Positions 10,030 to 24,559 of a stretch of DNA of 64,000 nucleotides are shown one piece after another (the first letter of the stretch is position 1; each line of letters starts with the position of its first letter). Origin of the DNA: Escherichia coli (lineage in GTDB: Bacteria > Pseudomonadota > Gammaproteobacteria > Enterobacterales > Enterobacteriaceae); assembly GCF_009931435.1 (NCBI RefSeq), contig NZ_CP043414.1. One strand, 5' to 3'. The notes beneath the pieces are model-generated. The model was not told where the DNA came from. It made no database searches and was given only the letters and a program-made list of their open reading frames with translations. The position numbers and the translations under genes were made by a program.

Positions 10030-11103
10030 TTACGAAAGCCCGCTCCCCGCAAGGACTGACGCCAGATACTTTCTGTCCATGGCTGCTTTTCGCATCTTAC
10101 GTCTTAACCCTGCCTTGAATACCTTATCATTCGTCAAAATATTAATTGCGATGTGCCGTATCCCTGAAAATAATTCTGCTGCATTTCCTCTTCTTATTTT
10201 GCAGTCGTCTTCATTCATTACCACGTCCAGACGCCAGTGCAGCTTATTCTCCACGTGCCAGTGGTTTCGGATTGCTGTGGCGAACTTCTCTGCGGTTAAA
10301 TCAGCAGAACTGATATAATATCTGACCGTCATTTCTGGCTCTTTCTTTTGTTCTGCTATTATTGACCGAAAGGAGACTGCCACGCATAATTTCTTCAGAC
10401 CTTTCCATTCAAACGTGAAATCAATAAGTTCATCAGGGACATCGCAAACAATGTGAAGACGGATTTCTTCTCTGCCGTGACTCTTTTCACTAATTGCGTA
10501 ACTGTCATGCTCTGGATTATTTAATTCTTTCAGCGGAAATTTTTCCTCGAAGCCTTTATTTAGCCGCCCCTGGTTTCCTTTTACAGCGAATAAATAATCA
10601 CCTCCCTGTTTTTGTATCTTCTCTGCAATATCTTTCTGGCAACCCATCGCATCAGTTGTGATGATTTTTCCTTTAATATCCAGCATGTTAAGAAGTTCTG
10701 GGATAGCTGTAATCTCATTGGATTTCTCATCCGTCTTGATCTGTCCGATGACCAGACTGTGCATTGTTGAGAACGCACTAATGACATGAATCGCTCCCCT
10801 GCGGCGACTCTTGTCATAAGAGTGCCGGAGCGTTTTTCCATCAATTGCAATGACGCCTTTATCATCTGAAGAATGGCAGTCACGCATCCAGTTAATAAAG
10901 CACTCGTGAAATTTTGCAGGACTGATACAGGATACAACTCTGGCAATGGTATCGTGAACAGGAATACCATTTTCAAAATCACCATATTGCTTCAAAAAAT
11001 CGAGATGTGTTTCCCCAAAATCCTCTATATCTTCCCAACCTTCTGCACCCGAAATAACGGCGCAAATAGTCAACAGTAGAATATCCGATAATTTATGTTC
11101 CAC
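10030..11103 (-). mobile_element. H-repeat-associated (ISAs1-family) transposase, the H-rpt element classically found at the distal end of E. coli Rhs elements
   Basis: 357 aa protein with DDE-type transposase features, strongly similar to the E. coli H-repeat proteins (YhhI/YbfD type); located directly downstream of the Rhs array. Confidence 0.8.
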
Positions 11104-11295: not shown

Positions 11296-11416
11296 CGTGA
11301 TCTTTCCCTGCCAGCCCCTCCGGGTTGACCTGCTCCGTCACCCGCAGAACCCTGCACAATATCCAGTCCCTTGCAGGTCATGTCACCCTGCCGCGCCGCC
11401 GGTTTTCCGCTCATGG
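11296..11416 (-). pseudogene. Vestigial rhs 5' end (start codon plus about 80 nt) fused to a short internal rhs fragment
   Basis: Bases 11340-11413 nearly match the first 70-plus nt of both rhs genes (compare 16134-16207 and 22269-22342), and are preceded by ccctccgggttgacctgctccgtcacccg, which also occurs inside rhs at about 15060. Confidence 0.55.
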
Positions 11417-11546
11417 TTTATTCCTTTTCTTTTACCTTACATGGCCATACAAATAGTTACCTATACTGTCTTTGAATATTGCCCTATCATTTAAAGCCCA
11501 CCTAATTTTTGCGACAGCAAAGGGATTTCTTTTTTAATCCAATCTA

Positions 11547-11951
11547 TCATTTCATTTTTTTAAAACATACGTTAATGCCATTCACACTTCCACATTCACC
11601 AAAAGCATCAAAATAAATTTCACATTTATTGTTGCCTTTCGAAATGATGCTAACCCCCCATCTTATATTGTTATATTTTTCTTTTCTGAAATACTTCATT
11701 TGCAATAAATCAATTATCTTACCCGCATAGAGATCGCTAAGTTCATTCACCACCACTTTATATCTGTATATTTCATTAAGACCTTCCTTGCTAAGCGGAA
11801 CTAACGTGGTAACATACGATGGAAGATTAACTACCTCTATCGTTTTCACGCTATCTATTCCACACAATTCATTCACTCGCCCCATCCCCAATACCGAACC
11901 AGAAAATAGAGACAATAAAACCATCAAATATTTCATCATAAAAAACCTCAC
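11547..11951 (-). CDS. Putative Rhs immunity protein (RhsI) for the rhs-A C-terminal toxin; has a signal peptide
   Basis: 134 aa, AT-rich, starts at the rhs-A stop codon; N-terminus MKYLMVLLSLFSGSVLG looks like a Sec signal peptide; position is that of an immunity gene. Confidence 0.55.
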   Translation of the reverse strand: MRFFMMKYLMVLLSLFSGSVLGMGRVNELCGIDSVKTIEVVNLPSYVTTLVPLSKEGLNEIYRYKVVVNELSDLYAGKIIDLLQMKYFRKEKYNNIRWGVSIISKGNNKCEIYFDAFGECGSVNGINVCFKKMK

Positions 11952-14900
11952 TATTCTGGCGTACCCGTTATTGTCATCGTCTGCAACGGTCCATCCACCC
12001 GATAAAAAGGCAGTCCACTATGAGCTCCTCTGACACACTCATCTAAAGTTTTCGCCGCACGCGATTCAATTATTGTAATAACCCTTGCCTCTTCTTTATT
12101 ATCATATTTCTTATCCGTCCGACTTAAAAGAGCCATGAAATTTTCTTTATCAAGAAGGTAATACTGTGCATGTGCAAACTCATGCCCCAAACCTAATGCA
12201 GGCGATTGTGATTTCGAGTTTAATTCAGTTGAACAAAATAAAGACGCTCTACTATTCCAATATATCGTCATATTATTCGAATTAAATCTACCATTGGTTC
12301 CTTCAATATACTCTATATTTATAGTTTCTTCAGAGCTTGATAAAAAATCTATAGCATCTTTCATTCGTGAATCTTTTTCTAAATACTTAACAGCCTGATT
12401 AAAATCACTTGGATCACCATTAACCTCGAATTTTAAACCCAAAGAATCTATAAACCGAACAGGGTTTAATGGATATTTATACAGATTCCATTCACCTCTT
12501 AGCCCGATTGGATCCTGCGTGATATACCTCCCCTGCAACGGGTCATAGTACCGGTGACGGTTGTAGTACAGCCCCGACTCCTCATCATACTGCTGCCCTG
12601 GCAGACGGTACGGCTGTTGCAGGTGCTCCGGGTTTTCCTCTCCCAGCAGGTTTCCCCACTCGTCATACTCCCCGCGCCACGCCGTTTCCCCTTCCGGGCT
12701 GATAAGCGCCTGCGGCAGCCCACGGTGGTCACAGTGGTAAAGATGAAGTTTCCTCTCCGGGATGTATTCTTCCTCCATCTGGTTGTTCATCTGTTCCGCC
12801 GTCAGCCCGCACTGCGCAAGCCATGCTTCACTCTCCGCACTCACCGCACCCGCGCGCAGTTCCCGCTCCAGCCTCCCCAGCATCACCGACAGCTCCGCCG
12901 GGAGCGTCACACCCGTGTCCTCCTGCAACACCTCCGCCAGGCTACGGTGCCGCGCCTTCGCCTGTTCGCCATTCTCTGTTTCGATTCTCAGGAGCGGCGT
13001 GAAGCTTCCCGGCTGATAAATCGTCTGGATACGTGTGGTGCCGGTCTGTACCGTCGTCAGCCTGTCACCGTCCCACCCGTACCATGTCTCCTCCGGTTTA
13101 CGCGACAGCGACATCCATCCCGTCAGGTCACGCTCCCGCCGCCACACCCGTTTTCCCGTCCTGCGGCCCAGCGGGTCGTAAAGGTAGCGGCTCTCCACCT
13201 GCGGCTCGCCGTGCTGTATCCGCGTGTAGAACACCAGACGGTGCTGGCTGTCGTAATGGTAGTGGTGGGTGCGCTCGTCGTGCATCCGTATCACCCCTTC
13301 CGGGATACGGTCCGTCTTCTCCGCCAGCCTGCCGTATTCATCGTGGCGGTAGACATAGTGCGCATCTTCCGCGATGCGGTTATCCGGCCACGCCGTGAAG
13401 GTGCTGTCCGGGTGCAGTTCCGGGTCCGGCAGCCGGTTTCCTGCCGGGTCCGTCGCATACGGGATATCAATGTCCAGGTTCGCTGCCGTGGTGTGGACGC
13501 CCGTCAGCCTTCCCGTGTCGCTGTAACGGTACTCCCGGCTCTCCTGCGGGCCGCTGATACGCACCAGTTGCCCGTTATCATTCCACGTATACTCACGGTC
13601 AAGCTGCGGAAGGTTCAGGTGCCTGCTCCGGAGCTGGCCTGTGAGGGTGTATGTGCTGGTCAGTTCATATGCGGCATTACTGCCTGCCATGCTGCCGAAG
13701 CTGCGCACCGTCTCACGGTGCAGCCTGTCCCGCGTGTACTCGACCAGCGGCGTTCCGCCCAGCTTCATCCCCGCAAGATAACCGCTGCCATACGTCAGCC
13801 ACTCCACCGGCGGCAGACCGTCCGGCTCCTGACGGGTCGCCAGCCCCTGTTCGCTGTACGCGTGCCCCGTCTCATGCTCCCACAGCATCTCCCCCGTCTC
13901 CGGGTTCTCCACCGTCTGCCGTTCGCCCGTCAGGCGGCCCTTATCGTCATAGCCGTAGTGGACCGCCACACGGTGGCCTTCACTGGTATGGCTGAGGGTG
14001 GTTAACCACCCGTGCTCATCATACTGCCACTGCTCTGCCGCTTCGCCGTTCACCGTCCGGTGCGTGATGCGGTCCGACGCATCGTAGTGCCAGAGGGTGA
14101 TAAGTCCCTCGTCTTCACTGCGGACAAGCTGCCCTGTGGCGCTGTACCGGTAACGCTGTGTCCGTCCGTCAAAGCCGCGCTGCTCCGTCAGGCGGTCCAC
14201 CGGGTCATACAGGAACGTGGACTGGCTGCCGTTCTCATTAGTCAGCGTGGTGATGCGCCCGGCGGCGTCATACCCCATGCTGCGCGTCAGACCGCCCTGC
14301 GTGGTGCTGATAGCTTTACCCCACGCATCATACTGTGTCTCACTGCGGCTGCCGTTCGGGGCAATGATAGCGGTGAGGTCGCCTGCGGCGCTGTACTCAT
14401 AACGGGTTTCACGCCCCTGCACATCCTTCTGACTGACCAGTTGACCACGCGGGTTATAACTGCTGTAAGTGCTGATGCCTTCTTCCCGGTGAACCGCCGT
14501 CCTCTGCCCGTACCGGTCGTACTCATACCGTGTCGTGTACCCCGAGCAGTCCGTGAAGGCCAGCAGTTGACCGTAGCGGCTCCATGCCATCTGTTTTGTA
14601 CTGCCCGTCGCATCCTGTATCCCTGTCGGCAGCTCACTCGCCGGGTCATCATAGCTGTACCGCGTCGTCTCACCGCTGCGCGAGGTCTCCGCCGCCAGCC
14701 TTCCCTTCTCATCATACTCCCGGCTGCTGCGAAGCCCGTCCGGGTACGTCACTGACGTCACCTGCCGCTGGCTGTTGTAGCCATACCGCACCGTCCTGCC
14801 GTCCGGCCCCGTCACCGCCGTCACCGCGCCCGACGCCATATGCAGGCTGTACTCCGTCCGCCGCCCCGCCGCATCCGTCTGCGCCTTCAGCCTCCCCGCC

Positions 14901-16207
14901 GCATCATACTCGCTGCGGGTGATGCTCCCGTCCGCATGCTCCTTCTTCACCACCCGCTTCAGGCCACCCTCGCCTTCCGTGTACAGCACCTCCCGCCTGT
15001 TCAGGCTGTCCGTGATGGTCACACGGTCCTGCCCGTACTCAAAGCGGTAGGCCAGCCCCTCCGGGTTGACCTGCTCCGTCACCCGACCGGTATCATCATA
15101 CCGGTAGCGGCTCTCCGGCCTCCCCGCATAATGGTGCGCCACCATCCGCCCGGCGTGCTCCGCATCATAAGTAAACCCGCGCACCTGCGTCCCGCTGCGG
15201 TCATACACCGCCAGCAACTCACCGCTGGCCGTGTACGTGTAGCGCGCCAGCGGCGCAGTCGGCTGTTCATCCGGGTATGCCGGGTCGTGTGTCAGCCACA
15301 CCGCCTCCAGCCGGATACCGTTATCGGCACCGTATTCTGTACCGGCGGGCAGCGTGTCGGGGAAAACCTGAGAAGAGGAAACAGAACGGGGACCGGCAGG
15401 GGAAGATAAAGACGTGGCGCGCTGTTTACGGCAGGCTTCCGCCCGCTGCGCCTGCGTGCTCAGCAACAGGTGAAAACGACGGCCCGCACCGTCCGTCCCC
15501 CCCGTCACCGCGCCCGCCACGTCACCCTCCGCTGCCCGGTGAAAGGCCAGCGTCCGACCAAAGCCATCCACCACGCCCGTCAGCACCCGGTATGCGGGCG
15601 GTTCCGGCGGCAGCACCTCGTCCGCCCCCGGCACCCGCTCCGGCCAGCTGAGTATCCACCACGGCCCCTGAAGGCTGTTTGTCGCCAGGTACACATGCGG
15701 ACTCAGGCGAACATCTTCCGGCAGCACCTGCCAGAGCGCGCTTAGCGGCTGCGAACTGTGCTGCTCCGCCCCCCCGCCCCGCGCCAGCCAGAACGACTCG
15801 CTGCGGCTGTAGCTTATCTCGCCGGGAAACAGCGGCTCAAAGTGAATGCTCCTGCCGCCGTTGTCGTTGAGTATCAGTTCCCGCTCATGAACCTGTAAGC
15901 GGATATCGAAGGGCGCTTTCCAGCCGGGGCCGAACACGCCCACCGGCGCGGGCGTCCTGGTCCGGTAACTGCTGTAAGCGCGGGAAAGAATAAACGGCAG
16001 CGGGCCGGGCAGTGCCAGGTCCGTCTCGCCCGGCAGCACCTTCGCACCCAGCACCGGGTTCACCGGGTTAGCATAGGTAATCCCTCCCGGACACACCGAG
16101 CAGGCCACTCCCGTCGGCGCACCTATCAGCACCCCTGCTGAACCCTGCACAATATCCAGTCCCTTGCGGGTCATGTCGCCCTGCCGCGCCGCCGGTTTTC
16201 CGCTCAT
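11951..16207 (-). CDS. Rhs-family polymorphic toxin (distal copy) with PAAR-like N-terminus, YD-repeat shell and a C-terminal domain carrying an HExxH motif
   Basis: 1418 aa; N-terminal [16 protein letters not shown]...VACSVCPGG, many YD repeats, DPIGL demarcation motif, then a unique roughly 160 aa tail containing [10 protein letters not shown]. Confidence 0.9.
12502..16207 (-). repeat. Rhs core repeat, copy A (near-identical to 18628..22342; apparently perfect over about 12502..14060)
   Basis: Identical antisense ORFs at a fixed 6126 bp offset (12554..14005 and 18680..20131, etc.) and direct line-by-line comparison. Confidence 0.85.
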
Positions 16208-16330: not shown

Positions 16331-17299
16331 TCATTGTTTGTTATCAGAAAGTGTTTTATACAGCGGCACATATCCCACGTCTTCCACAAGACTTTGCCCC
16401 TGAGGGCTTAAAAACCAGTCCACTAGTTTTTGTGTTTCCGGTGTCGGCTTTTCGCGGGTGACCATGTAGGCATCCACCACATACGGATAAGTACCGTTGC
16501 GGATATTCTCCACCGTTGGTGCAATACCATTTATTGCCAGCAGCTTAAGATTTGGGCTTATATCCTTATTCATCTGTGTGACATAATAGCGGAAGGTGTA
16601 ACCAATTGAAGGCTGCGTATTCCGGTAGGCAATTACTTTGGTTAACACTCCATTCATAAGGCTTACTTCTGTAGATGTTCTGGCGGGTAGCATCGGTGTC
16701 TCTTTCATCACCTTTGCCAGCATCACCGTCTGGCTACCGGAATCTTCCGGACGCTGCCAGACCTGAATGCGCTCATCACTGCCACCAACCTGACTCCAGC
16801 GGGTGATTTTACCGCTGAAGATATCCCGAACCTGCTGTTCAGTAAAAGAACTGACCGGATTACTGGCGTTAACGATAAAAACAAAGGCTTCGTGGGCGAA
16901 GGGGGTATAAACCAGTTTCACCCCGGCATCGGCAGCCCGTTGTTTTTGTCCTGCGGAAGGCTGGGCAACAAAAATAACATCGGCCTGGCGCTTTATGAGA
17001 TCATTATAGGCTTCTGGTGTACGAGTCGGATACATATAATTCAAACCCGGATCTTGATGGTTATCCCCGGGGATCAAATATCGGTAAGCTGAAGCATACA
17101 GTGGATATAACGCGGTTGCACCACATACCCGGGGCCATTTATTCGAGTTATCAGTGTAGCGTAAAGTGGGTTCTCCTCGTATATTGGTTTTCTCCCAACT
17201 CACTGTTTCTTTTACGCTGTTATCGCCCCCGCCGTCTACACATCCTGACATTAATACCGTCATATAAAATAATACTGGTAACAGGCCCACCCTACGCAT
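16331..17299 (-). CDS. PstS-like (phosphate-binding-protein fold) lipoprotein; start uncertain, ORF extends to 17365
   Basis: 344 aa ORF; probable start MRRVGLLPVLFYMTVLMSGC with lipobox; AT-rich; lies between the two Rhs modules. Confidence 0.6.
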   Translation of the reverse strand: MRRVGLLPVLFYMTVLMSGCVDGGGDNSVKETVSWEKTNIRGEPTLRYTDNSNKWPRVCGATALYPLYASAYRYLIPGDNHQDPGLNYMYPTRTPEAYNDLIKRQADVIFVAQPSAGQKQRAADAGVKLVYTPFAHEAFVFIVNASNPVSSFTEQQVRDIFSGKITRWSQVGGSDERIQVWQRPEDSGSQTVMLAKVMKETPMLPARTSTEVSLMNGVLTKVIAYRNTQPSIGYTFRYYVTQMNKDISPNLKLLAINGIAPTVENIRNGTYPYVVDAYMVTREKPTPETQKLVDWFLSPQGQSLVEDVGYVPLYKTLSDNKQ

Positions 17300-17627
17300 A
17301 CAATGATTTAATAAATACGCCATATACCTCACTCTAAAATATTGATTATATAAATACATATGCATAATTATATTTACATCAAATTCTGAATGAACAATTT
17401 AAATTTAGAGAAAGTGAAATTTAATTTTTCGATACTTCCGCATACATATTCCCCTCGCTAAAAAATCATCATTCCACAATCAATCATTAATTACAACTCA
17501 ATATACATCATTTAACTTTCATTAAACTCGCAATTTATTATTACATTGTAGCCATTATGAACTGTCATCACGCACACACTCTACATACACATTAGAAACA
17601 ATATAACCCCATGAGCCATCCTCCGTT

Positions 17628-18074
17628 TCAATACTTAGTGCAGCGTGTCTTAAGGAAATTAGAAGCCACAACATCAATCTTTTCTTTTAAGACTAAATCA
17701 TCCACATAATCACAAGACAAATAGAAGTCATTACCATCGGCCATTATAAATATCCTCATAGGTAAAGATTTATCATTATCAACATGAGCATTCGTAATAA
17801 TCCAATAATAAGGAAATCTAACATTTTTTGTAGGAATACCCAATAAATCATAAGCTTTATTATTATATTCTATCGCTCCCTTAACAAACGTTGGTTTGAC
17901 CTCCTTACCAATAATGCGATGCGACGTATATTCTTCCTTCTCAGCAAACGATTGCATTAATGCCCATATAGGTTTATTTGCCAGCTCACCGTGATGAAAA
18001 ATCCGATAAAAATACACTCCTAAAAAAAATATTAAGCCTAAGCAAACCAATACCATGAGGCAGTTCTTACTCAT
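17628..18074 (-). CDS. Putative Rhs immunity protein (RhsI) for the rhs-B C-terminal toxin; N-terminal membrane anchor
   Basis: 148 aa, AT-rich, overlaps the rhs-B stop by 4 nt; N-terminal hydrophobic helix [18 protein letters not shown]. Confidence 0.55.
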
Positions 18075-21000
18075 TGATTAAAATCCGTAAAATTAGAAGG
18101 AACAGGGCCATTCTCAGGTGAAAACAATGGAGATGTATTTGATACTCGTGATGCTATCATTTCTACAGTAGCAGGAAGATACATTGGCATTCCATTATCA
18201 CCACCTAGCGGATCAGTTGAAGTTAAAATTTCATTTATTGAATCTACTGAGACTCCCGCATGCAACATTGCCTCAATAACCATTGTTGCACAATTGTGCG
18301 TAAAATAGTTATAGTCACTTCTATCTACTTTATATTTTTCATCAATGTACTTAATCATTGCTTTCTCTTGTTCTGGCGTGGTTTTAATTGTATATATCCT
18401 CGTGCTTCTACGTTGTGCTTGTTCAGTTAAATAAGCTATGACACTCCCTCCACGTGGGGTAGCGGTTCCATAGCTATATACCCCTTTTCCAGTAAATGCC
18501 ATCGCAGAATGCCCTAATGGATTACCACTCGTGGGTCCCCCAGCAAAAATAAGGGTATCCAAACCAAGTGGATCTATATTTATAGTTGGATTCCACGGAT
18601 ATTTATAAAGATTCCATCCCCCCGCAAGCCCGATTGGATCCTGCGTGATATACCTCCCCTGCAACGGGTCATAGTACCGGTGACGGTTGTAGTACAGCCC
18701 CGACTCCTCATCATACTGCTGCCCTGGCAGACGGTACGGCTGTTGCAGGTGCTCCGGGTTTTCCTCTCCCAGCAGGTTTCCCCACTCGTCATACTCCCCG
18801 CGCCACGCCGTTTCCCCTTCCGGGCTGATAAGCGCCTGCGGCAGCCCACGGTGGTCACAGTGGTAAAGATGAAGTTTCCTCTCCGGGATGTATTCTTCCT
18901 CCATCTGGTTGTTCATCTGTTCCGCCGTCAGCCCGCACTGCGCAAGCCATGCTTCACTCTCCGCACTCACCGCACCCGCGCGCAGTTCCCGCTCCAGCCT
19001 CCCCAGCATCACCGACAGCTCCGCCGGGAGCGTCACACCCGTGTCCTCCTGCAACACCTCCGCCAGGCTACGGTGCCGCGCCTTCGCCTGTTCGCCATTC
19101 TCTGTTTCGATTCTCAGGAGCGGCGTGAAGCTTCCCGGCTGATAAATCGTCTGGATACGTGTGGTGCCGGTCTGTACCGTCGTCAGCCTGTCACCGTCCC
19201 ACCCGTACCATGTCTCCTCCGGTTTACGCGACAGCGACATCCATCCCGTCAGGTCACGCTCCCGCCGCCACACCCGTTTTCCCGTCCTGCGGCCCAGCGG
19301 GTCGTAAAGGTAGCGGCTCTCCACCTGCGGCTCGCCGTGCTGTATCCGCGTGTAGAACACCAGACGGTGCTGGCTGTCGTAATGGTAGTGGTGGGTGCGC
19401 TCGTCGTGCATCCGTATCACCCCTTCCGGGATACGGTCCGTCTTCTCCGCCAGCCTGCCGTATTCATCGTGGCGGTAGACATAGTGCGCATCTTCCGCGA
19501 TGCGGTTATCCGGCCACGCCGTGAAGGTGCTGTCCGGGTGCAGTTCCGGGTCCGGCAGCCGGTTTCCTGCCGGGTCCGTCGCATACGGGATATCAATGTC
19601 CAGGTTCGCTGCCGTGGTGTGGACGCCCGTCAGCCTTCCCGTGTCGCTGTAACGGTACTCCCGGCTCTCCTGCGGGCCGCTGATACGCACCAGTTGCCCG
19701 TTATCATTCCACGTATACTCACGGTCAAGCTGCGGAAGGTTCAGGTGCCTGCTCCGGAGCTGGCCTGTGAGGGTGTATGTGCTGGTCAGTTCATATGCGG
19801 CATTACTGCCTGCCATGCTGCCGAAGCTGCGCACCGTCTCACGGTGCAGCCTGTCCCGCGTGTACTCGACCAGCGGCGTTCCGCCCAGCTTCATCCCCGC
19901 AAGATAACCGCTGCCATACGTCAGCCACTCCACCGGCGGCAGACCGTCCGGCTCCTGACGGGTCGCCAGCCCCTGTTCGCTGTACGCGTGCCCCGTCTCA
20001 TGCTCCCACAGCATCTCCCCCGTCTCCGGGTTCTCCACCGTCTGCCGTTCGCCCGTCAGGCGGCCCTTATCGTCATAGCCGTAGTGGACCGCCACACGGT
20101 GGCCTTCACTGGTATGGCTGAGGGTGGTTAACCACCCGTGCTCATCATACTGCCACTGCTCTGCCGCTTCGCCGTTCACCGTCCGGTGCGTGATGCGGTC
20201 CGACGTATCGTAGTGCCAGAGGGTGATAAGCCCCTCGTCTTCACTGCGGACAAGCTGCCCTGCGGCGCTGTACCGGTAACGCTGTGTCCTGCCATCAAAG
20301 CCGCGCTGCTCCGTCAGGCGGTCCAGCACATCATAGGTAAACTCACTCCGGCTGCCGTTCTCGTTGGTCAGCACGGTGATGCGCCCGGCGGCGTCATACC
20401 CCATGCTGCGCGTCAGCCCGCCCTGCGTGGTGCTGACGGCCTTTCCCCACGCATCATACTGTGTCTCACTGCGGCTGCCGTCCGGGGCAATGATAGCGGT
20501 GAGGTCGCCTGCGGCGCTGTACTCATAACGGGTTTCACGCCCCTGCACATCCTTCTGACTGACCAGTTGACCACGCGGGTTATAACTGCTGTAAGTGCTG
20601 ATGCCTTCTTCCCGGTGAACCGCCGTCCTCTGCCCGTACCGGTCGTACTCATACCGTGTCGTGTACCCCGAGCAGTCCGTGAAGGCCAGCAGTTGACCGT
20701 AGCGGCTCCATGCCATCTGTTTTGTACTGCCCGTCGCATCCTGTATCCCTGTCGGCAGCTCACTCGCCGGGTCATCATAGCTGTACCGCGTCGTCTCACC
20801 GCTGCGTGAGGTCTCCGCCGCCAGCCTTCCCTTCTCGTCATACTCCCGGCTGCTGCGCAGCCCGTCCGGGTACGTCACTGACGTCACCTGCCGCTGGCTG
20901 TTGTAGCCATACCGCACCGTCCTGCCGTCCGGCCCCGTCACCGCCGTCACCGCGCCCGACGCCATATGTATCCGGTACTCCGTCCGCCGTCCCGCCGCAT

Positions 21001-22417: not shown

Positions 22418-24559
22418 TCAAAATTGCCGCATATCCGGCATTCCGGGGGGTAAATCTTTCGGCACAGGCGCATCCGGCACAGGTTGTGTGGCACCACAGT
22501 TCCAGTTAATCACCGGCGCATCACCGTTCACATCCGACTCCCCTTCCAGATGAATGTGCGTACCATTAAGAAATATGCTTCCGTCCTTCGTCAGCACCAG
22601 CCTTGCCTTACCACAGCAGAGTTCAAGATGCTCACCGGCAGAATAAACTGCTGTTTGTCCGGTGTTTTCCTTCATCGTCTTGCCCACCGAGAAGGTGACG
22701 TTATTCCCTACATTGACGCTGTAGCCCATTCCCACCATCAGTGATTTATGCAGCCCTACCTGTGAGGACTGCAACAACGCCACCGAGGTATTCATAATGC
22801 CGCCTACCGTCGTCTGGTAAGCCACGCCCACCGTCAGCGCACGAATGATCCCCACCTTTTCAACCTGGTTTGATCCCACTTTGATAATCTGGTTACTGCC
22901 CACCGTTTCCACCTGGTTGACACCAACCGTCTGTATCTGATTAACGCCAATGTTCTGGATCTGGTTATTGGTAACGGTGATCGCCTGGTTGTTACCTATT
23001 TTTTCGGCATGGTTGTTTATCACATCAGTGGTGCGGTTATTCAGCACCTCGGTGTTCATGTTCTTCTGCGCGTGGATGTAGACCTGTTCTTTCCCTGTCG
23101 CATCGTCAAACTTCAGTTCATTAAACCCGCTGCCCTTATAGGTTTTCGAACGAATGGTCATCTGCGTCTTTGTTCCCGGCAGGCTGCCGGGGGTGCGGTT
23201 TTCCTGGTGGTAGGTACGCCCCATAATAATCGGCTGGTCCGGATCGCCGTTGAGGAAGTCCACAATGACCTCCTGACCCACACGCGGTATCGCCAGGTTA
23301 CCAAACCCGGTGCCTGCCCACGCCTGTGCCACACGGATCCAGCATGAACTGTCCTGGTTTGACGGGTTATAACGGTCCCAGTTAAATTTCACCCGCACGC
23401 GGCCATGTTCATCACAGAAGATTTCTTCTCCTGCCGGTCCCGTCACGACGGCGCTCTGCGGGCCATCCACCAGCGGTTTCAGCAACGGCTGTGGCCGCCA
23501 TGTTCTGTCTGCCGGTATTACCGCAAAGTGGTTATTCAGCGTGGTACCTGAACCCCTGCGTCCCGGCACCGCCTGCGGCTGCTCGCCGTGCAGTTCACTT
23601 GCCACCACCTGCCATTCCCGGTTCAGGTTCGCCTGCGGATGCCCCGTCAGCGCAATTCGCCGTCCCGGCCATATCTCCGGAGAACGGCTTGTTCCGCGCG
23701 CCACTTCTGCGTTGTTTCGCCAGCCATCCATCTGCCAGCGGGCAAAGTTCTGCCCGTGGGCACCCTTGAAACGTCCGGGGTAGTCATACACTTCATACTG
23801 TGTGCGCTGGTAATCCTGGTACTGGCCTTCCTGATCAAAACGCCCTGCCCAGCCGGGTCGTTTAAAGGTGTAGTCCTTGGTCACCACGGAAGAAGGGCGG
23901 ATTTGTGCGCTGTAGCGGAACTGGCTGATGCATAGGGTGCTCACCTCGGTACGGGTGTTCGGATTCCAGGGGATCTCAAAGGACTCCGGCAGATAACGCA
24001 CGGTGTCGCACAGGACCAGGCTCTGGTCGGTACTTTTTTGCGCGTGCTCCTCATAAAAGAAGATGCCTTCCTCCGCCGCCATCCGGCACAGGAAATCGTA
24101 ATCGGTTTCGCCGTACTGGACACAAAACTCACGGGAAGGATGCGGCTCGCTGAACAGCGGACTCCACTCGGTCACCCCGTTTTCTTTCAGGATCGTCGCG
24201 AGTATGCTTTCGATGTCCTCATTCTGGAAGATACGGAAGTTCTGGCGCAGCCCTGTGCGCCACAGCGGTGGGCATACCTTCATGCTGTACAGCATCTGGT
24301 TTTTGTCGTTCTCCCCCAGTTCAAACCAGGTCACCACACCTTTCACCCGGCGCTGTACGTCATCGCCCTGCCATATCGTCAGGTAGGCCATTTTGTCCAG
24401 CACCTGCGCAAATTCAAGGGAGAGAAACTGCTGGCTGACCAGAGAGAGATCGAGGGAAAAGAGCGAAGAGAGTGACTGGTTCAGATGAAAGGAGACCACC
24501 GCAAACGCGTCCGGTGGCAGGCCGTCCACTTCCAGCGTGAAACGTAATCCGGTTGACAT
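22418..24559 (-). CDS. vgrG: T6SS spike protein VgrG (TssI)
   Basis: 713 aa; gp27/gp5-like VgrG body with a short Pro-rich C-terminal tail; 75 nt upstream of rhs-B. Confidence 0.95.
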   Translation of the reverse strand: MSTGLRFTLEVDGLPPDAFAVVSFHLNQSLSSLFSLDLSLVSQQFLSLEFAQVLDKMAYLTIWQGDDVQRRVKGVVTWFELGENDKNQMLYSMKVCPPLWRTGLRQNFRIFQNEDIESILATILKENGVTEWSPLFSEPHPSREFCVQYGETDYDFLCRMAAEEGIFFYEEHAQKSTDQSLVLCDTVRYLPESFEIPWNPNTRTEVSTLCISQFRYSAQIRPSSVVTKDYTFKRPGWAGRFDQEGQYQDYQRTQYEVYDYPGRFKGAHGQNFARWQMDGWRNNAEVARGTSRSPEIWPGRRIALTGHPQANLNREWQVVASELHGEQPQAVPGRRGSGTTLNNHFAVIPADRTWRPQPLLKPLVDGPQSAVVTGPAGEEIFCDEHGRVRVKFNWDRYNPSNQDSSCWIRVAQAWAGTGFGNLAIPRVGQEVIVDFLNGDPDQPIIMGRTYHQENRTPGSLPGTKTQMTIRSKTYKGSGFNELKFDDATGKEQVYIHAQKNMNTEVLNNRTTDVINNHAEKIGNNQAITVTNNQIQNIGVNQIQTVGVNQVETVGSNQIIKVGSNQVEKVGIIRALTVGVAYQTTVGGIMNTSVALLQSSQVGLHKSLMVGMGYSVNVGNNVTFSVGKTMKENTGQTAVYSAGEHLELCCGKARLVLTKDGSIFLNGTHIHLEGESDVNGDAPVINWNCGATQPVPDAPVPKDLPPGMPDMRQF

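Follow-up and report, generated by a model that had tools for sequence, protein, structure and literature searches.

Can an Rhs protein linked to a type VI secretion system (T6SS) carry a protease toxin that acts in the periplasm of the target cell? This question is raised by a 64,000-nucleotide stretch of Escherichia coli contig NZ_CP043414.1 (assembly GCF_009931435.1), here called the window, in which the second of two Rhs proteins (the distal Rhs) ends in a domain with an HExxH motif and is followed by a small gene of the dsORF-h1 family. Rhs proteins usually combine a constant shell with a swappable tip. Work on the tips has so far dealt mostly with cytoplasmic nucleases, NADases and ADP-ribosyltransferases, and protease tips have, to our knowledge, barely been explored. 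An earlier note, made from the letters of the window, had read the distal tip as a zinc metallopeptidase and the downstream protein as its periplasmic immunity protein. We consider it likely that the two constitute an antibacterial effector-immunity pair, made up of a T6SS-delivered, periplasm-acting zinc endopeptidase and a periplasmic immunity protein. The toxin class itself is already catalogued, has been reported from E. coli on in-silico grounds and has undergone a genetic test in Salmonella, and the window holds an ordinary member of it; new here are the evidence on the compartment, a botulinum-like fold modelled with high confidence and a definable immunity family.

The distal Rhs comprises a long core and a short C-terminal tip (coordinates of all window features are listed in Table 1). 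Residues 1-1258 match the NCBIfam model NF041261 ('RHS element core protein') with 2603 bits against a cut-off of 2000, DUF6531 spans residues 47-123, and core-end motifs of the PxxxxDPxGL type, including DPIGL, are found in the protein. By analogy with characterised Rhs/TccC proteins (PMC8636562), a putative autoproteolytic release point would be located just after the DSLGL that closes the core. The core has a GC content of 0.64, against 0.36 for the tip and 0.34 for the gene that follows it. While the cores of the proximal and the distal Rhs of the window are 95% identical, their tips are unrelated. E. coli proteins of this kind are termed PAAR-Rhs in the literature (PMC6730261); the distal Rhs contains a literal P-A-A-R at residues 5-8, and a Pfam PAAR match is absent. 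The tip length of roughly 160 residues given in the earlier note is correct, whereas the supposed uniqueness of the domain is not: among 5426 complete E. coli genomes, 1017 contain a match to at least 80% of a query that spans tip and immunity gene (positions 11400-12700).

An HExxH pattern alone is not diagnostic. About 0.1 occurrences are expected by chance per 1418 residues, and a second one, HETGH, is present in both Rhs cores of the window as a chance occurrence. The HEFAH of the tip, in contrast, is meaningful, because H87, E88 and H91 (tip numbering) are invariant across an alignment of 79 tip homologues, in which they form the only invariant columns. Conservation of at least 90% is seen for W62, P81, A82, L85, E117, E118, V121, I122, E126, A130, E135, R138 and H141, and the family consensus includes YDNxEExRVI...LGExxRxxH. 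A downstream [DE]N motif is present as Y113-D114-N115-K-E117-E118. In botulinum neurotoxin (BoNT) and M91 the third zinc ligand is E261 (PMC6367388), to which the E-E pair of the tip would be analogous. Likewise, the R-x-x-H of the tip resembles the R-x-x-Y active-site motif of BoNT/M91 (PMC6367388) and may have a corresponding role. In an exhaustive profile-free search, 586 cluster representatives were retrieved at E<=0.001; their alignments usually extend across all 160 residues, and the domain is usually located at the C-terminus of a longer protein.

The family and fold of the tip point to the same enzyme class. When the 79 homologues were scanned singly against Pfam PF14891 (Peptidase_M91), matches were obtained for 36 of them at E<=0.001 and for 70 at E<=0.1, the best value being 5.6e-10. 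The peptidase-family profile search suggested in the earlier note finds these matches in the family along with a marginal one for the window tip. Homologues from Hafnia alvei (46-48% identity) bear the NCBI name 'M91 family zinc metallopeptidase'. An AlphaFold (AF2) model of the tip, built on the 79-sequence alignment, reached a predicted local distance difference test score (pLDDT) of 93.7 and a predicted template modelling score (pTM) of 0.90. It shows a zincin fold that is closest to botulinum light chains (M27), with GtgA and NleC also among the nearest structures; a non-peptidase fold, which had been named beforehand as a finding that would speak against a metallopeptidase, is thus not what the model shows. 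In line with this, M91 has been published as the family closest to the BoNT light chains (PMC6367388). Solved structures gave no match in a single-sequence search with the tip, and a profile search returned Rhs-core flanks and a non-significant match to botulinum type E (E=0.17) only. NCBIfam yielded nothing usable on the tip and the immunity protein, the sole match being Ceg23 at E=0.018. Tox-MPTase4 was ruled out as an identity for the tip, as PF15640 is unmatched by tip or homologues even at E<=10, and homology to the Tpe/Tpi group (VgrG2b C-terminal domain/DUF4157) was looked for and not found.

With its invariant HExxH, the PF14891 matches in its family and the zincin-fold model, the tip bears out the metallopeptidase proposed in the earlier note, and we assign it to the M91/Tox-HopH1 (NleD-like) class as a compact, presumably proteolytic zinc endopeptidase. 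A 2012 catalogue of polymorphic toxins lists Tox-HopH1 with the signature 'HExxH, [DE]N', with RHS and T6SS carriers and with no immunity family assigned (PMC3482391). The same M91-like domain also terminates a 2426-residue SpvB/TcdB-type (Tc-toxin-like) protein in a metagenome (L009 2501-9781), which lacks a downstream immunity gene; some members of the tip family may therefore target eukaryotes.

As for the downstream gene, the earlier note had described an overlapping open reading frame (ORF) of 134 codons. This frame exists (11547-11951, starting at a GTG and overlapping the Rhs stop by 1 nt), but both its start and its length need revision. In other E. coli, RefSeq names the gene 'RHS element protein dsORF-h1', a protein of 149 residues that starts with MMKYL... 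from an ATG corresponding to position 11939. This ATG lies 12 nt (four codons) inside the 134-codon frame and six bases after a GAGG; because of this spacing, the RefSeq usage and homologues with 1-3 residues before the hydrophobic core, it is the likelier start. Read from there, the N-terminus MMK-YLMVLLSLFSGSVLG-MG contains all three parts of a Sec signal, namely a basic residue, a 15-residue hydrophobic core (Kyte-Doolittle 2.2) and V-L-G ahead of the predicted cut. A lipoprotein reading was rejected, as N-E-L-C is not a lipobox. No Pfam or NCBIfam hidden Markov model exists for the dsORF-h1 protein, and a literature search on RhsH/dsORF returned nothing relevant.

The gene's 3' end is frameshifted in the window. 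Compared to the 149-residue copy in one of the two closest E. coli records (L001), 128 residues are identical, with the other 21 lying out of frame, since a homopolymer is one base short; the last 21 residues are thereby swapped for MK and a stop, and the protein ends ...CFKKMK instead of ...CFKKNEMIDWIKKEIPLLSQKLGGL. The lost C-terminal segment is conserved in Hafnia and metagenome homologues and forms a confident C-terminal helix in a model of the immunity protein (pLDDT 91.6). With a short query across the site, the A7 allele was found in none of the 5426 complete E. coli genomes, and the 82 genomes with the same flanks all have A8. A single-base homopolymer change that is seen in no other complete genome is typical of sequencing error, and the frameshift, whether such an error or a real lesion, is possibly artefactual. 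A second immunity copy is absent from the window.

Homologues of this protein occur directly downstream of related toxins in other genera. The order in Hafnia alvei is a DUF6531-Rhs gene, an M91 ORF of 170 residues that is called as a gene of its own and overlaps the Rhs stop by 4 nt, and a gene for a 154-residue protein with 30% identity to dsORF-h1 (E=3e-21), the start MKLFLILIFFVSSQSYA and an export signal. Three metagenome loci (L004, L011, L012) have homologues with signal peptides in this position and a fourth (L007) one with a membrane anchor. Exported homologues beside toxins come from Hafnia, an enterobacterial-like metagenome contig, Acidobacteriota and Omnitrophica; a Bacteroidota-type Rhs locus (L010) has an unrelated lipoprotein-like ORF in the immunity position. 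A profile search with the immunity protein retrieved 94 relatives, none of which has a name or a Pfam domain. Sec-like N-termini (basic, then hydrophobic, with an A-x-A-like site) are present in 58 of 64 full-length members; of the other six, five begin inside the signal peptide, which suggests truncated start calls, and the sixth (P0218) carries a long extension at its N-terminus. The enterobacterial proteins share two conserved cysteines. Together with the basic-hydrophobic N-terminus and the small-residue cleavage site of the window protein, the exported homologues downstream of related toxins substantiate the signal-peptide immunity protein postulated beforehand. Two members of the family are orphans without an adjacent toxin (L013 6001-6474 and L014 6001-6459), one beside a transposase and Rhs fragments and the other among housekeeping genes.

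A broader picture emerges from a pattern-based scan of species-representative genomes, which gave 69 toxin loci, mostly in metagenome-assembled genomes (MAGs) of Eremiobacterota, the others in Bacteroidota, Acidobacteriota, Omnitrophica, Halopseudomonas and an Alteromonadaceae isolate. A downstream gene of the dsORF-h1 family has a clear export signal at five loci (L016, L018, L019, L023 and L083, the last with a weak match to the family profile, E=4e-4), a borderline one at L067 and none at three loci in Eremiobacterota/UBP12 MAGs (L017 2911-3330, L025 2929-3315, L035 2911-3318). Twelve loci have an unrelated small ORF with a signal peptide instead, and at about forty nothing recognisable follows the toxin. 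Iterative profile search did not recruit the small signal-peptide ORFs beside Bacteroidota and Gammaproteobacteria toxins to the immunity family; they are either unrelated to it or too divergent. As judged from these N-termini, export of the partner protein appears consistent in Enterobacterales and most diderm lineages, but is not universal.

The genomic setting links the pair to a T6SS. The window covers the aspV/yafV region of the Escherichia chromosome, with yafJ, lpcA, fadE, ivy, yafV, an ISAs1 element, the two Rhs genes, vgrG and a complete T6SS cluster in this order; TssC, F, G, K, L, M and VgrG all have their full length within it. In E. coli strain H6, vgrG is directly followed by this same Rhs, and the tip-plus-immunity module often adjoins vgrG in E. 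coli and is sometimes decayed to a pseudogene. No Eag chaperone gene is found in the window between vgrG and Rhs or beside Rhs, and the N-terminal 300 residues of the distal Rhs contain no transmembrane helix. In the two closest E. coli records (L001 21978-22700 and L002 13690-14664) the same Rhs lacks its 5' end and lies against a partial tagH or tssM; hence, T6SS parts were lost through different deletions, while tip and immunity gene were kept. A fragment of another Rhs 5' end and an ISAs1-family transposase beyond the immunity gene point to a past rearrangement at the end of the array. A plasmid-borne module was considered and rejected, as the single plasmid match is a mislabelled chromosome. 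The toxin-immunity module was also met, with 92% protein identity to that of E. coli, on a contig of 1670 bases (L016, JAIJJM010000683.1) binned into a 'Collinsella sp.' MAG, which is almost certainly a mis-binned Escherichia contig.

Table 1. Positions of the toxin-immunity pair, its motifs and neighbouring features in the window (aa, residues of the distal Rhs unless stated otherwise)
Feature	Positions	Strand	Basis
Distal Rhs gene, 1418 aa, stop codon included	11951..16207	minus	ORF; NF041261 RHS_core, YD repeats, TIGR03696, DUF6531
DSLGL (aa 1254-1258), end of the conserved core motif NPxxxxD[PS]xGL	12434..12448	minus	sequence; core model ends at 1258
C-terminal toxin domain, aa 1259-1418 (~160 aa), M91/Tox-HopH1-like zincin	11954..12433	minus	
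HEFAH (aa 1342-1346), two zinc-binding histidines and catalytic glutamate	12170..12184	minus	alignment invariance; helix 81-97 of the model
E-E pair (aa 1372-1373) within YDNKEE, probable third zinc ligand by analogy	12089..12094	minus	at least 90% conserved; start of helix 116-132 in the model
R-G-A-H (aa 1393-1396), conserved R-x-x-H	12020..12031	minus	R138 and H141 at least 90% conserved
Second HExxH (HETGH) in the Rhs core, aa 778-782; also at aa 781 of the proximal Rhs	13859-13873	minus	
Shine-Dalgarno GAGG	11946-11949	minus	just upstream of ATG 11939
Immunity gene as present, dsORF-h1 family, 130 aa from ATG, 3' end frameshifted	11547..11939	minus	RefSeq annotation of the same gene; alignment; tblastn match divided between two frames; homologues
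Predicted Sec-type signal peptide MMKYLMVLLSLFSGSVLG, 18 aa, then MG...	11886..11939	minus	simple sequence rules; conserved in family
Homopolymer, A7 on the coding strand (T run on the plus strand), one base short	11555..11561	minus	alignment with L001 and L002, which have A8
Rest of the immunity gene, out of frame, coding potential for NEMIDWIKKEIPLLSQKLGGL and a stop	11491..11554	minus	second tblastn segment
Fragment (25 codons) of another Rhs 5' end, just past the immunity gene	11316-11414	minus	
ISAs1-family (H-repeat) transposase after the Rhs 5' fragment	10030-11103	minus	
344-aa ORF between the two Rhs modules, lipobox-like LMSGC	16331-17365	minus	PstS-family phosphate-binding match, 128 bits, below the cut-off of 206.6
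148-aa protein downstream of the proximal tip, N-terminal membrane anchor	17628-18074	minus	
Tip of the proximal Rhs (Rhs of 1423 aa), His...Cys pattern	18071-18560	minus	weak Pfam matches: Lnb_N (E=2.7e-7), TseH-like, PPPDE
VgrG spike gene, head of the vgrG-rhs-rhs array	22418..24559	minus	TIGR03361 at 630 bits

Based on family membership, conserved catalytic motifs, fold, linkage to vgrG and the T6SS and the conserved exported partner, we propose the following mechanism. The Rhs, which has neither a transmembrane segment nor a neighbouring Eag chaperone gene, would ride on the VgrG spike, with its YD-repeat shell enclosing the 160-residue tip. An internal aspartyl protease would cut after the D[PS]xGL motif (...DSLGL), as in studied Rhs proteins (PMC8636562), and the freed tip would be released once the spike has been fired into a neighbouring Gram-negative cell. 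Within the tip, zinc would be held by HEFAH and the downstream glutamate in a core like that of a botulinum light chain. Export of the cognate immunity protein implies that in E. coli the toxin should exert its effect outside the cytoplasm; the tip would thus act in the periplasm, most likely on one or a few specific envelope proteins, since its nearest relatives are all sequence-specific protein endopeptidases, which favours cleavage of envelope proteins over hydrolysis of peptidoglycan. The intact 149-residue downstream protein, exported by the Sec pathway, would block the protease in the periplasm, presumably by binding, and would shield the producer and its sister cells.

Several points weigh against this proposal. 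The match of the window tip to PF14891 is marginal and partial (E=0.0018 to 0.00099, model positions 64-118 of 176), covering the HExxH region only, the signal peptides were called by simple rules and not by a trained predictor, and no measured activity, localisation or toxicity of this protein was found in the literature. Three signal-less homologues and some forty of 69 loci lacking a recognisable immunity gene indicate that periplasmic action is not a property of the whole family; the step from an exported immunity protein to a periplasm-acting toxin, taken in the earlier note, is supported for this pair, whereas export is not universal in the wider family. Moreover, a 2026 Salmonella survey assigns Tox-HopH1 effectors to an anti-eukaryotic class (PMC12994826), and NleD and HopH1 have host-protein targets. 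The tip could accordingly be imagined as an anti-eukaryotic or trans-kingdom protease that cuts host signalling proteins, with a downstream gene that is not primarily antibacterial immunity, and its domain class, which is that of NleD/HopH1 (PMC3482391), the Tc-toxin-like carrier and the many toxin loci without an immunity gene would fit such a role. However, one conserved family is tightly coupled downstream of the toxin across genera and also occurs as orphan copies, which is the signature of an antibacterial immunity protein. As, in addition, the Salmonella M91 module acts as an antibacterial effector/immunity pair (PMC8867033) and an antibacterial role is given for the E. coli T6SS-1 type (10.1101/2024.03.05.583533), we regard a eukaryotic target as improbable. 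Action in the target cytoplasm, with the hydrophobic N-terminus of the partner being an inner-membrane anchor or irrelevant, was assumed in a preprint on Shiga toxin-producing E. coli (STEC; 10.1101/2024.03.05.583533), and is in keeping with the three homologues that have no export signal and with characterised Rhs tips, mostly cytoplasmic nucleases or ADP-ribosyltransferases (PMC8636562). Yet every Enterobacterales copy of the partner begins with a basic n-region, followed by a hydrophobic core of 15 residues and a cleavage site of small residues, and its positive N-terminus implies that the body of the protein faces the periplasm, cleaved or not. The two cysteines conserved in the enterobacterial proteins also speak against a cytoplasmic site, as does an Rhs without the N-terminal transmembrane helices and the Eag chaperone gene that accompany inner-membrane crossing, so that we find this explanation very improbable.

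A periplasmic site of action would also suit a cell-wall hydrolase, and the PAAR-RHS-M91 effector of Salmonella is indeed listed as peptidoglycan-targeting (PMC8867033, PMC12288458). The Salmonella label, however, has no assay behind it, the nearest structures of the tip (BoNT light chains, GtgA and NleC) and NleD are all sequence-specific protein endopeptidases (PMC6367388), no peptidoglycan peptidase family in Pfam or NCBIfam is matched by the tip, and VgrG2b, a periplasmic metallopeptidase, lacks peptidoglycan hydrolase activity (PMC6899460); we therefore give peptidoglycan as the substrate very little credence. A different matter is the state of the locus in this strain. The frameshift deletes a conserved, confidently modelled helix, and the pair may thus not be functional here; related strains carry the same Rhs as an N-truncated pseudogene fused to T6SS remnants, and the module is flanked by the ISAs1 element and the Rhs 5' fragment. 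The locus might hence be a decaying remnant, with a truly broken immunity gene and a toxin that is not expressed or delivered. On the other hand, none of the Rhs, VgrG and T6SS core ORFs of the window is truncated, and the lesion consists of one homopolymer base, of a kind that is typical of sequencing error. We consider decay unlikely, although a possibility to be reckoned with, and it concerns activity in one strain and not the nature of the module. A periplasmic endopeptidase with an exported immunity protein remains the explanation that we prefer.

The tip of the proximal Rhs looks like a papain-like hydrolase by its residue pattern and weak profile matches, and its partner is membrane-anchored, so that both Rhs tips of the cluster may act outside the cytoplasm. 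The 344-residue ORF that separates the two Rhs modules is listed in Table 1.

Published views on the target of such tips disagree, ranging from a cytoplasmic endopeptidase over a peptidoglycan hydrolase to an anti-eukaryotic effector. The exported partner, which is shared across genera, points to periplasmic action for the enterobacterial members, and this can be tested. Roughly one in five complete E. coli genomes has the toxin-immunity segment, whose target could therefore be of importance in gut competition. Being of the botulinum/NleD type, the protease probably has a narrow substrate, and identifying it could reveal a vulnerable envelope protein. Furthermore, the immunity family, which has no Pfam or NCBIfam profile, could be defined from the alignment made here.

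Among known systems, the PAAR-RHS-M91 module of Salmonella Dublin (SED_RS06335 with immunity gene SED_RS06340) shares the C-terminal position of the tip in an Rhs protein, the T6SS link and the HExxH plus [DE]N signature (PMC3482391), here Y-D-N-K-E-E, as well as the same starting terminus sequence and antibacterial effector/immunity behaviour (PMC8867033). In a competition assay it produced a 2.4-fold immunity-dependent effect (PMC8867033). Together with in-silico notes, this one assay makes up the literature on metallopeptidase Rhs tips, which are as under-characterised as the earlier note had remarked. The Salmonella immunity protein, compared by description only, has 110 residues and one transmembrane segment, in contrast to the 149-residue dsORF-h1. 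The same kind of organisation is seen around Rhs-Peptidase M91 (Ec154_02824) of STEC O22:H8, where two Rhs come after VgrG, of which the second ends in an M91 tip and precedes a small ORF, while an Eag chaperone is absent (10.1101/2024.03.05.583533). Ec154_02824 and the window Rhs probably belong to the same gene family, although a premature stop has deprived the STEC copy of its N-terminus, while the copy of the window is intact. The authors of the STEC preprint report a downstream protein without homology and assume a cytoplasmic target (10.1101/2024.03.05.583533); contrary to this assumption, the conserved signal peptide, as predicted here, argues for the periplasm.

E. coli Rhs-CT1 (Tox-MPTase4) is likewise an Rhs with a metallopeptidase tip, and T6SS-dependent antibacterial activity was shown for it (Ma et al. 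2017, as cited in PMC6730261 and PMC7216683), but it represents another toxin family (PF15640) and an Eag-chaperoned class of Rhs. The light chains of botulinum and tetanus toxin (M27) have about 420 residues compared to the roughly 160 of the tip, with 12-19% identity, and their substrate-binding insertions are absent from the tip, as published for M91 (PMC6367388); they also differ in delivery and have a neuronal target, as opposed to the bacterial one proposed for the tip. The best functional analogue is provided by the Tpe/Tpi pairs, i.e. the VgrG2b C-terminal metallopeptidase with PA0261 in Pseudomonas aeruginosa and Tpe1-Tpi1 in Acinetobacter baylyi. There, a T6SS-delivered HExxH metallopeptidase is toxic only in the periplasm and is countered by a periplasm-facing immunity protein that is exported by varied routes (PMC6899460); VgrG2b acts in the periplasm without being a hydrolase of peptidoglycan, and lipoproteins may be its targets (PMC6899460). 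Unlike the window tip, these enzymes travel on VgrG or as a small cargo protein and not inside an Rhs shell, and their immunity proteins are unrelated to dsORF-h1. What the systems would share is the periplasmic location of the immunity protein, as predicted by sequence rules from the signal peptide found here and in 58 of the 64 relatives.

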